Below, one piece after another: positions 404 to 894 of a stretch of DNA of 937 nt. The position numbers and the translations under genes are program-made. The notes under the pieces are model-generated. The model searched no databases. It saw nothing but the letters and a program-made list of their open reading frames with translations, and was not told the DNA's origin. How positions within the stretch are numbered: position 1 is the stretch's first letter; every line of letters begins with the position of its first letter. This DNA is from a phage: sequence record M16226.1. The stretch is one strand, 5' to 3'.

Positions 404-515
404 CCGTTTTTAAATACGAATCATTATCATTCGTATTCCGCTTTTAAATGAGAATCATTATCATTTGCATTTCACTTTTTAAATGAGATTGATTCTCATT
501 ATCATTCGCATTCAG
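404..515. repeat. Three tandem ~35-bp AT-rich direct repeats; candidate DNA-unwinding element
   Basis: The unit is approximately CG(C)TTTTAAAT-RMG-AATCATTATCATT-YGYATTYC. The TTTTAAAT cores end at 415, 449 and 484 (periods 34 and 35 bp); the ATCATTATCATT cores are at 420-431, 454-465 and 496-506 (copy 3 has a ~6-bp insertion). Each core matches the Fur-box 19-mer GATAATGATAATCATTATC at 13-15 of 19 positions. Confidence 0.6.
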
Positions 516-519
516 GCGA

Positions 520-537
520 GCAGGGCAATTGCCCTGC
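520..537. other. Perfect 18-bp palindrome GCAGGGCAATTGCCCTGC; candidate operator for a dimeric DNA-binding protein, or hairpin/terminator
   Basis: Exactly self-complementary over 18 bp, centred on CAATTG. On the + strand it could form a 7-bp GC-rich stem with a 4-nt loop followed by GCTTTTG (a weak T-tract). It lies exactly between the AT-rich repeats and the first 15-mer direct repeat. Confidence 0.45.
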
Positions 538-542
538 GCTTT

Positions 543-766
543 TGTGCAAATCCGACATTTGCCCCCATGGATTACGCGTGGGCGTGTATGTGCAAATCCG
601 ACAATTTTTGGTAGTGTGCGAATCCGACCCGAAAAATTTTTATAGTGTGCAAATCCGACAATGAATTTTCCCAAAAACTCCAGCAATCACGAACTGCGTT
701 CGAATCCTGTGGAATTAGCTAGAGTATGTGCAAATCCGACATGTGTTGAGATGTGCGAATTCGACA
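543..766 (+). repeat. Array of six 15-bp direct repeats (iteron-like), consensus TGTGCAAATCCGACA
   Basis: Four exact copies at 543-557, 589-603, 646-660 and 727-741; variants TGTGCGAATCCGACC at 615-629 and TGTGCGAATTCGACA at 752-766; a degenerate copy around 694-710. All are in the same orientation. Start spacings are 46, 26, 31, 81 and 25 bp. Most copies are followed by a short T/A tract. Confidence 0.6.
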
Positions 767-894
767 AGATTTTTGTGACTTCGATGGGAGGGTGTGTGAT
801 TGTATGGGTTTGAGGGGAAGATGAGAGAGCGAGAGAAATTTGGGAGGCTAGAAGGATATGGGCGCAGGATTGGTGCGGAGACGATTTGCGGGGA

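Follow-up and report, generated by a model that had tools for sequence, protein, structure and literature searches.

The DNA analyzed here, a stretch of 937 nucleotides to which we refer as the window, contains no open reading frames (ORFs) of more than 80 amino acids and carries a perfect 18-bp palindrome, GCAGGGCAATTGCCCTGC, at positions 520-537. What does this palindrome do? The initial annotation proposed that it might serve an iteron replicon as an inverted-repeat operator or as a partition site, with a plus-strand terminator hairpin as the fallback. Database searches identified the window as a part of bacteriophage T5: it shows ~99 % identity to T5 over all 937 bases, with three complete T5 genomes as the best matches, and coincides exactly with the "injection stop signal" (iss) feature in the left terminal repeat of this phage (AY543070). 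In the alignment, 70 nt of the AT-rich repeats of the complete T5 genomes are absent from the window, and the 3' end of the window differs slightly from these genomes. Altogether, 508 phage records were similar to the window (508-557 T5-like phages across searches), and neither megablast nor sensitive blastn detected any plasmid resembling it among the 72,556 PLSDB records. According to Davison (2020), the iss region was first sequenced by Heusterspreute et al. (1987). The pre-early genes T5.012-T5.017 lie upstream, on the plus strand (AY543070), and the next gene is located ~1.2 kb away on the opposite strand. Pfam searches with the flanking T5 proteins and the longest ORFs of the window yielded no domains, and thus no initiator-type domain, and an Rfam search for known RNA families at a permissive E-value produced only a chance match to a miRNA at positions 447-500. 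The 18-mer is almost certainly palindrome J of T5 (hereafter palJ), a feature already annotated in GenBank.

The palindrome, annotated as misc_feature 'palindrome J' in AY587007 and recognizable by its self-complementarity, conservation and predicted folds, occurs once in the window and consists of two 9-bp arms with zero spacer, in the context ...TTCAGGCGA GCAGGGCAATTGCCCTGC GCTTTTGTGCAAATCCGACA... Its exact self-complementarity over 18 bp was claimed at the outset for a somewhat longer range and is confirmed for positions 520-537; the remainder of that range, positions 538-545, reads GCTTTTGT. One G is missing from the AY587007 record, which makes palindrome J an imperfect 17-mer there; AY543070 and the window both have the perfect 18-mer. 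Perfect palindromes of at least this length appeared in 17 of 5000 (0.34 %) dinucleotide-preserving shuffles of the window, in which palJ is the longest perfect palindrome and the runner-up has 5-bp arms. The centre is CAATTG, with perfect two-fold symmetry, and the sequence can be folded as a 7-bp G+C stem capped by the loop AAUU. The GC content over positions 520-539 is 0.70, and the description of palJ as the only GC-rich element in AT-rich surroundings holds for the upstream side but not downstream, where positions 540-630 have ~50 % GC. The palindrome is thus real and non-random, and it is not new, having already been annotated as palindrome J at the 7.9 % nick.

The placement of palJ between AT-rich repeats and 15-mers was likewise borne out. 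Upstream, at positions 399-507 of the plus strand, are three ~35-nt AT-rich repeats (GC 0.28) that AY587007 labels direct repeat C and palindromes E-I; downstream, our repeat scan and AY587007, in which they are labelled direct repeat D, agree on six plus-strand copies of the 15-mer TGTGCRAATYCGACM (544-558, 589-603, 615-629, 646-660, 727-741 and 752-766). Within direct repeat B of AY587007, in the interval 298-379, there are two pairs of DnaA-box-like 9-mers on the minus strand, with 3 bp between the two members of a pair: TGGGGATAA (298-306) with TGTTGATAA (310-318), and TGTTGATAA (359-367) with the consensus box TGTGGATAA (371-379). These DnaA boxes of T5, their pairing and their oriC-like arrangement have been described by Davison (2020). 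Farther upstream, at positions 136-157 of the plus strand and 380 nt from palJ, palindrome C (palC) with a run of T (T5) is annotated in both AY587007 and AY543070 as the rho-independent terminator at the end of the rightward pre-early genes.

Two independent T5 records put a major interruption of the DNA at palJ. In AY587007, the 'major single-stranded nick 1, 7.9 %' is annotated on CCCTGCGC, overlapping the right arm of palJ; in AY543070, a 'major DNA single-chain interruption' is given as complement 9748..9749, which corresponds to positions 2109-2110 of sequence L002 in our set and, with the L002-to-window offset of 1570, to the minus-strand phosphodiester bond between 540 (A) and 539 (G). 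Across the annotated nick, the minus strand reads 5'-CAAAA/GCGCAGGGCAATTGCCCTGC, the nick products being, by annotation, 5'-CAAAA-OH and pGCGCAGGG, with the break 2 nt outside palJ. The recognition motif of this major interruption, 5'-GCGCAGGG-3' on the minus strand (CCCTGCGC on the plus strand), occupies positions 532-539, and the right arm of palJ supplies 6 of its 8 bases. Read along the minus strand, positions 540-533 are A/GCGCAGG, followed by G, which fits the T5 nick consensus 5'-R/GCGCRGG-3' given in PMC3517423. That source further states that the consensus 7-mer is also present five times on the un-nicked strand of T5, that nicking is controlled by two late genes, sciA and sciB, and that viable nick-less T5 mutants exist. 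The other major nicks of T5 read, on the minus strand, GA/GCGCAGGGG (18.3 %), GA/GCGCAGGGC (32.6 %) and GG/GCGCGGGC (64.7 %), and the 99.7 % nick (nick 5) is the right-terminal-repeat copy of nick 1, with the same motif. Because the mapped position, the motif match and the conservation in relatives described below point in the same direction, the right arm of palJ together with the next two bases (minus-strand 5'-R/GCGCAGGG) is very probably the nick site, as judged from the annotation of the records and from conservation.

To follow palJ across related phages, we gathered relatives with palJ-free probes, namely the 15-mer repeat in IMG/VR and two gapped 15-mers in metagenomes, and added divergent Klebsiella phages and BF23 from BLAST matches. 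The T5-like phages of Escherichia and Salmonella and those from metagenomes have the palindrome, including sequences in which the flanking DNA has diverged to ~75 % identity. In its commonest form, shared by BF23, the perfect palindrome spans 22 bp (GCGCAGGGCAATTGCCCTGCGC), and each strand then carries the nick consensus. The GCGC to the right of palJ is invariant wherever the junction exists and is followed by TT(T/A)TGTGC, except for L099, which has only TT; the CCTGCGC at the junction is kept in the Tequintavirus-, Epseptimavirus- and Sugarlandvirus-type sequences examined, and Escherichia phage fp01 reads GCGCAGA on the nicked strand. On the left side, the outer bases are GAGC in T5, GTCG in the L018 type and GGCA in the L016 type, so that the 7-bp core alone is complementary, and the 5 nt immediately left of the stem come in at least four versions, with the right-hand GCGC fixed. 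The spacing of the arms also varies: across the relatives, 8-nt arms flank a spacer of 2, 3 or 9-10 nt, the longest being a T-rich insert in the four genomes of the L016 group; L095 has a 5-nt loop, and the loop of L099 is AAAT. In L104, a 4-bp remnant of the palindrome is left (GGGCCTTTGCCC). The junction of the Klebsiella Sugarlandvirus phages, ...CCGACCCCCGGCCCTTCCTGCGCTTATGTGCGAATCCGACA, keeps the nick motif and the 15-mers and has neither the palindrome nor its left arm, and the distant Pectobacterium phage My1 keeps the AT-rich repeats, the 15-mers and the overall layout, with neither palindrome nor nick motif at the junction.

Changes within the core of the stem are matched on the two sides. 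An A-T pair is replaced by G-C in L029 (GCGGGGGC...GCCCCC(C)GC, with one extra C in the right arm), a G-C pair by A-T in fp01 (GCAGAGC...GCTCTGC), and a G-C pair by T-A in L093 and L107 (GCAGGTC...GACCTGC). Across 14 distinct stem-bearing haplotypes, 3 of the 7 core pairs have changed on both sides and none on one side only, a pattern reached in 0 of 500 shuffles; the lone unpaired cell among these haplotypes is the bulge of L029. The nick-2 site of fp01, within dnk, still reads GCGCAGGGG, and co-evolving specificity of the nickase, which we considered as the source of the two-sided changes, is ruled out for this phage by the retention of the canonical nick-2 motif.

The comparison thus separates two constraints that appear to be superimposed at this junction: the nick motif would be the older and more general one, and the complementarity of the left arm would have been added in the Escherichia and Salmonella T5-like phages. 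What is new here is that motif and stem can be told apart, with the motif persisting without the stem in Klebsiella phages, that the left arm tracks changes of the right arm, and that many relatives are fully symmetric, with the nick consensus on both strands. In the Sugarlandvirus and My1 lineages, from which the hairpin is absent, the function of the stem would be dispensable or replaced.

The maintenance of the left arm in a form complementary to the right arm suggests that a stem-loop formed in a single strand, and not only the duplex sequence, has probably been under selection. We favour such a stem-loop over a rigid site for a dimeric protein because the spacing of the arms varies (by 1 and 7-8 bp) and the positions of the two arms co-vary. 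All stem-bearing variants are predicted to fold, with energies from -17 to -22 kcal/mol, and the Klebsiella junction lacks this hairpin. In the BF23 type, the stem is extended to 10 bp, with a 4-nt loop, and directly abuts UUUUGUG.

Several features suggest that such a stem-loop might be used in RNA. On the plus strand, the stem and the adjoining GC are followed by a short T-tract, TTTT, at positions 540-543, and then by GTG, so that the U-tract of T5 is UUUUGUG after a GC spacer and is found on this strand only; the relatives mostly have TTTT, some have TTAT, and L099 has TT with the stem still kept. In a consensus scan of the window, palJ was the sole terminator-like site, with a chance expectation of 0.7, and the independent annotation of phage VAH1 (MK373792) marks exactly these 18 bases as 'putative transcriptional terminator, -15.70'. 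In unrelated viral contigs, a textbook terminator is built around the identical 18-mer (...GGTAGCAGGGCAATTGCCCTGCTACCTTTTTTTGTG). Because a G+C stem followed by (GC)UUUUGUG occurs only on the plus strand, downstream of the plus-strand pre-early genes, we infer that a plus-strand terminator-type hairpin is the likeliest use of the stem, an assignment that we nevertheless make only tentatively. Several observations speak against it: the pre-early genes are already separated from palJ by a stronger terminator, palC; the depositors of the T5 records gave the terminator annotation to palC and not to palJ; and in T5 the T-tract is short and offset from the core stem by GC. No promoter-like sites beyond chance were found between palC and palJ in a consensus scan. 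The fallback reading of the initial annotation, in which a hairpin with a weak T-tract terminates plus-strand transcripts, survives as a prediction and is strengthened by the compensatory changes and the variation of the loop.

On balance, we lean towards an interpretation of palJ as a nick target combined with a selected stem-loop and a plus-strand terminator-type hairpin. Under this scheme, a strand-specific late nicking system would target the right arm plus two bases, leaving the interruptions at 7.9 % and 99.7 %; the left arm would pair with the right arm to give a stem-loop in a single strand; and this stem-loop would act as a rho-independent-type RNA hairpin on rightward (plus-strand) transcripts, possibly as a back-up stop or a stabilizer of 3' ends just where the first-step-transfer DNA ends.

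Davison considered the roles of such iss elements to be beyond guessing, and several other readings deserve to be weighed against the one that we favour. The operator or partition site proposed in the initial annotation, with an initiator dimer bound to palJ and monomers bound to the 15-mers, has in its favour that the succession of DnaA boxes, AT-rich repeats and direct repeats resembles F ori2, and that an oriC-like arrangement of the DnaA boxes has also been remarked upon by Davison. We nevertheless consider it almost certainly incorrect: the DNA around palJ is the terminal repeat of a virulent phage and not a plasmid, with 0 matches among the plasmid records searched; the Pfam searches detected no initiator domain near palJ; not a single 5-mer of the arms recurs in the 15-mer repeat; and, according to Davison (2020), the replication origins of T5 have been placed around mid-genome and the replication genes stay silent as long as this DNA alone has entered the cell. 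The absence of the palindrome from relatives that retain the 15-mers had been named beforehand as an observation that would tell against an operator, and this is what is seen in Sugarlandvirus and My1, which keep both the AT-rich repeats and the 15-mers. The iteron of F RepE given in the initial annotation, TGTGACAAATTGCCCT, is correct (F ori2 sequence in a vector appendix), but the 9-mer shared with it, AATTGCCCT, is within chance, given that 10.5 % of shuffles share a 9-mer with this iteron. A symmetric site of another kind, at which a dimer (the nicking enzyme, the pre-early DNA-binding protein A2 or a 'restriction' activity of A1 put forward as a hypothesis by Davison) would read both half-sites, is suggested by the perfect two-fold symmetry around CAATTG, by the BF23 type, in which this symmetry covers 22 bp and each strand has the complete nick consensus, and by the inclusion of palJ among the candidate cleavage palindromes in the speculative restriction model of Davison. 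Such putative binding seems quite improbable to us in view of the shifts in arm spacing, by 1 bp in L095 and by 7-8 bp in the L016 group, which leave the arms intact and would rotate the half-sites by ~250-290 degrees relative to each other. It is also at odds with the changes at three arm positions on both sides, with another nick site of the same genome unchanged in the case of fp01, and with the lack of conservation of the outer GCGC in the left arm (GAGC, GTCG, GGCA).

The variable loop and conserved stem would suit any single-strand hairpin, in DNA as well as in RNA, and the hairpin might accordingly be coupled to the nick at the DNA level, with the end or a nicked cruciform folding back and acting mechanically or enzymatically. 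An 18-bp cruciform is, however, unfavourable in nicked, torsion-free DNA. A hairpin of this type could mark the site for efficient nicking, shield the 5' end from a 5'-3' exonuclease or flap endonuclease, or aid the pause at 8 %, and the geometry is suggestive: the minus-strand fragment with its 5' end at the nick opens with 5'-pGC and continues into the 18-nt self-complementary sequence, 2 nt separate the nick from the base of the stem, palJ lies 32-48 bp from the estimated shear point of first-step transfer (9618 vs 9650-9666 in AY587007), and the pauses of T5 ejection in vitro are reported to coincide with nick positions. Still, this geometry is not common to the nicks, as nicks 2 and 4 have no hairpin and the motif of nick 3 is in the other arm, the Klebsiella relatives keep the nick motif without a hairpin, and nick-less T5 mutants are viable according to PMC3517423; a DNA-level role is therefore unlikely in our estimation. 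We also regard it as rather unlikely that the left arm has no function, the nick motif alone being functional and a local inverted duplication being kept perfect by hairpin-templated correction and not by selection. Quasipalindromes are known to undergo mutational correction by template switching, and compensatory changes in a DNA palindrome can arise by such hairpin-templated strand switching without selection. The persistence of the motif without the palindrome in Sugarlandvirus fits this possibility, and the 4-bp remnant in L104 could represent either decay or an intermediate. What argues for selection, and hence for the stem-loop that we favour, is that the 14 haplotypes contain no uncompensated change of the left arm while the adjoining 5 nt vary freely, that the arms have been kept through two independent changes of the loop, and that the palindrome spans the T5-like phages of Escherichia, Salmonella and metagenomes down to the low flanking identity noted above.

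As such, the finding of palJ is the rediscovery of an annotated feature, to which the comparative evidence is a small addition. The stop of T5 DNA transfer at 8 % and the self-nicking of this phage are questions more than 50 years old, and palJ sits where the two meet. A far more consequential, and very improbable, scenario is that palJ is the cis element at which the first-step-transfer DNA is physically processed, or that the nick-adjacent hairpin is a part of the 8 % transfer plug. Were this the case, a plus-strand cut in the BF23-type sequence, opposite the pre-existing minus-strand nick, would break the DNA in a staggered fashion and leave self-complementary 5' overhangs of 22 nt; with the site present in both terminal repeats, the break would free the stalled DNA and one genome-length unit could circularize; and palJ would be the 'restriction site' required by the model of Davison. 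The comparative pattern defines a simple set of mutants, in the left arm, in the right arm and in both with compensation, by which the functions of nick and hairpin could be separated.

Set beside known systems, palJ shows likenesses and differences of several kinds. F ori2 has the same order of elements as the window, and its iteron has one 9-mer (AATTGCCCT) in common with it. The F operator, however, consists of inverted half-iterons (TGTGACAA...TTGTCACA) and is located directly upstream of repE, whereas palJ has no relation to the repeats, precedes them and is not accompanied by an initiator gene. Among the major nicks of T5 itself, nicks 2-4 have the same minus-strand motif as nick 1, but only nick 1 and its copy, nick 5, are embedded in a perfect palindrome. 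At nicks 2 and 4, which fall within the genes dnk and exo2, respectively, there is no hairpin, and the proposition that every major nick requires a hairpin is thereby ruled out. Nick 3, like nick 1, is found within a hairpin, which in this case is annotated as a terminator; the motif constitutes the 3' arm of the hairpin on the nicked strand at nick 3 and the 5' arm at nick 1. Beyond T5, phiKMV-like phages are nicked at CGACNNNNNCCTA/CTCCGG and Pseudomonas phage tf at TACT/RTGMC (PMC3517423). As in T5, these nicks are strand-specific, are present in virion DNA and occur at a short consensus (PMC3517423), but the consensus sequences are unrelated to that of T5, and a palindromic context is not mentioned for them in PMC3517423. 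From intrinsic terminators, finally, palJ differs in its short U-tract (UUUU G U), which in T5 is offset by GC, and in the presence of a stronger terminator upstream; with them it shares a G+C-rich stem of 7-10 bp and a 4-nt loop.

Palindrome J, the 18-mer at window positions 520-537 whose right arm overlaps the T5 nick motif at 7.9 % (nick 1), is perfect both in the window and in the complete T5 genome record AY543070 (locus L002, 2090-2107). The corresponding segment of another complete record, AY587007 (9650-9666; L001 2090-2106), reads GCAGGCAATTGCCCTGC; because one G is missing, the 'palindrome J' of this record is imperfect, and the difference is either a polymorphism between strains or an error of sequencing. 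The window itself differs from the complete records at several other positions: the AT-rich repeat block is shorter by 70 nt (at 443/444) than in both AY543070 and AY587007, there is a 3-nt gap near 870, the sixth of the 15-mer direct repeats carries one substitution (TTCGAC vs TCCGAC), and small differences occur at the 3' end (925-937). The window may represent an older or variant T5 sequence.

The commonest variant of palindrome J is a 22-bp palindrome, GCGCAGGGCAATTGCCCTGCGC, found in BF23 (L089 1366-1387) and also in L007, L020, L028 and others, and at this length each strand carries a complete nick consensus, A/GCGCAGGGC, the two copies being 22 bp apart. Given that both strands carry the motif and that nicks have been reported for one strand only, either the motif alone does not determine strand choice in the BF23-type phages or their DNA has a staggered double nick. 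Another match to the nick consensus R/GCGCRGG, G/GCGCAGG, is located at window 861-868 on the plus strand, which is the un-nicked one, and is also kept in BF23 (L089, around 1712). The base that follows this match is A instead of G or C, a possible sign that the true consensus is longer, R/GCGCRGG[GC]. In the dnk gene (locus position ~483), the counterpart of T5 nick 2 has GCGCAGAGG in place of GCGCAGGGG in 7 of 28 T5-like genomes (L110, L116-L119, L121 and L127), a synonymous change in an Arg codon. Either A is tolerated at consensus position 7 or nick 2 is absent from these phages.

In Pectobacterium phage My1, neither the palindrome nor the nick motif was found where the AT-rich repeats meet the 15-mers. 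Just upstream of the My1 AT-rich repeats (L012 13601-13625) lies TTGCCCTGCGGGGCA, which comes close to the motif and contains an inverted repeat of 4 bp. The window contains, at 536-547, a small imperfect inverted repeat around a T-tract, GCGCTTTTGTGC, whose arms are the GCGC of the nick site and the GTGC with which the first 15-mer begins; the junction in the Klebsiella phages folds into a small GCGC/GTGC hairpin in place of palindrome J.

Elsewhere in the window, a perfect 11-nt inverted repeat, AGGGGGATTTA / TAAATCCCCCT (5-15 and 170-180; distance 154 nt), flanks the palC terminator on both sides. The DnaA-box-like 9-mers at 298-379 form two pairs, 52 bp apart, with exactly 3 bp (GTC) inside each pair; these paired 9-mers have already been described (Davison 2020).

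The major nick 3 of T5 (32.6 %) falls within an annotated rho-independent terminator hairpin (L003 18140-18200; AY587007 39659-39686), AGCCCTG...CAGGGCT followed by TTTTCTG on the minus strand, and therefore, of the four distinct major nick motifs, two make up the arm of a hairpin. Such a placement may simply reflect the concentration of G+C-rich 8-mers in terminator stems of a genome with 39 % GC. The identical 18-mer of palindrome J also constitutes the core of longer hairpins in unrelated viral contigs (L137 2968; L140 876; L141 3730; L139 336), one of which is a textbook terminator, AAGGTAGCAGGGCAATTGCCCTGCTACCTTTTTTTGTG.
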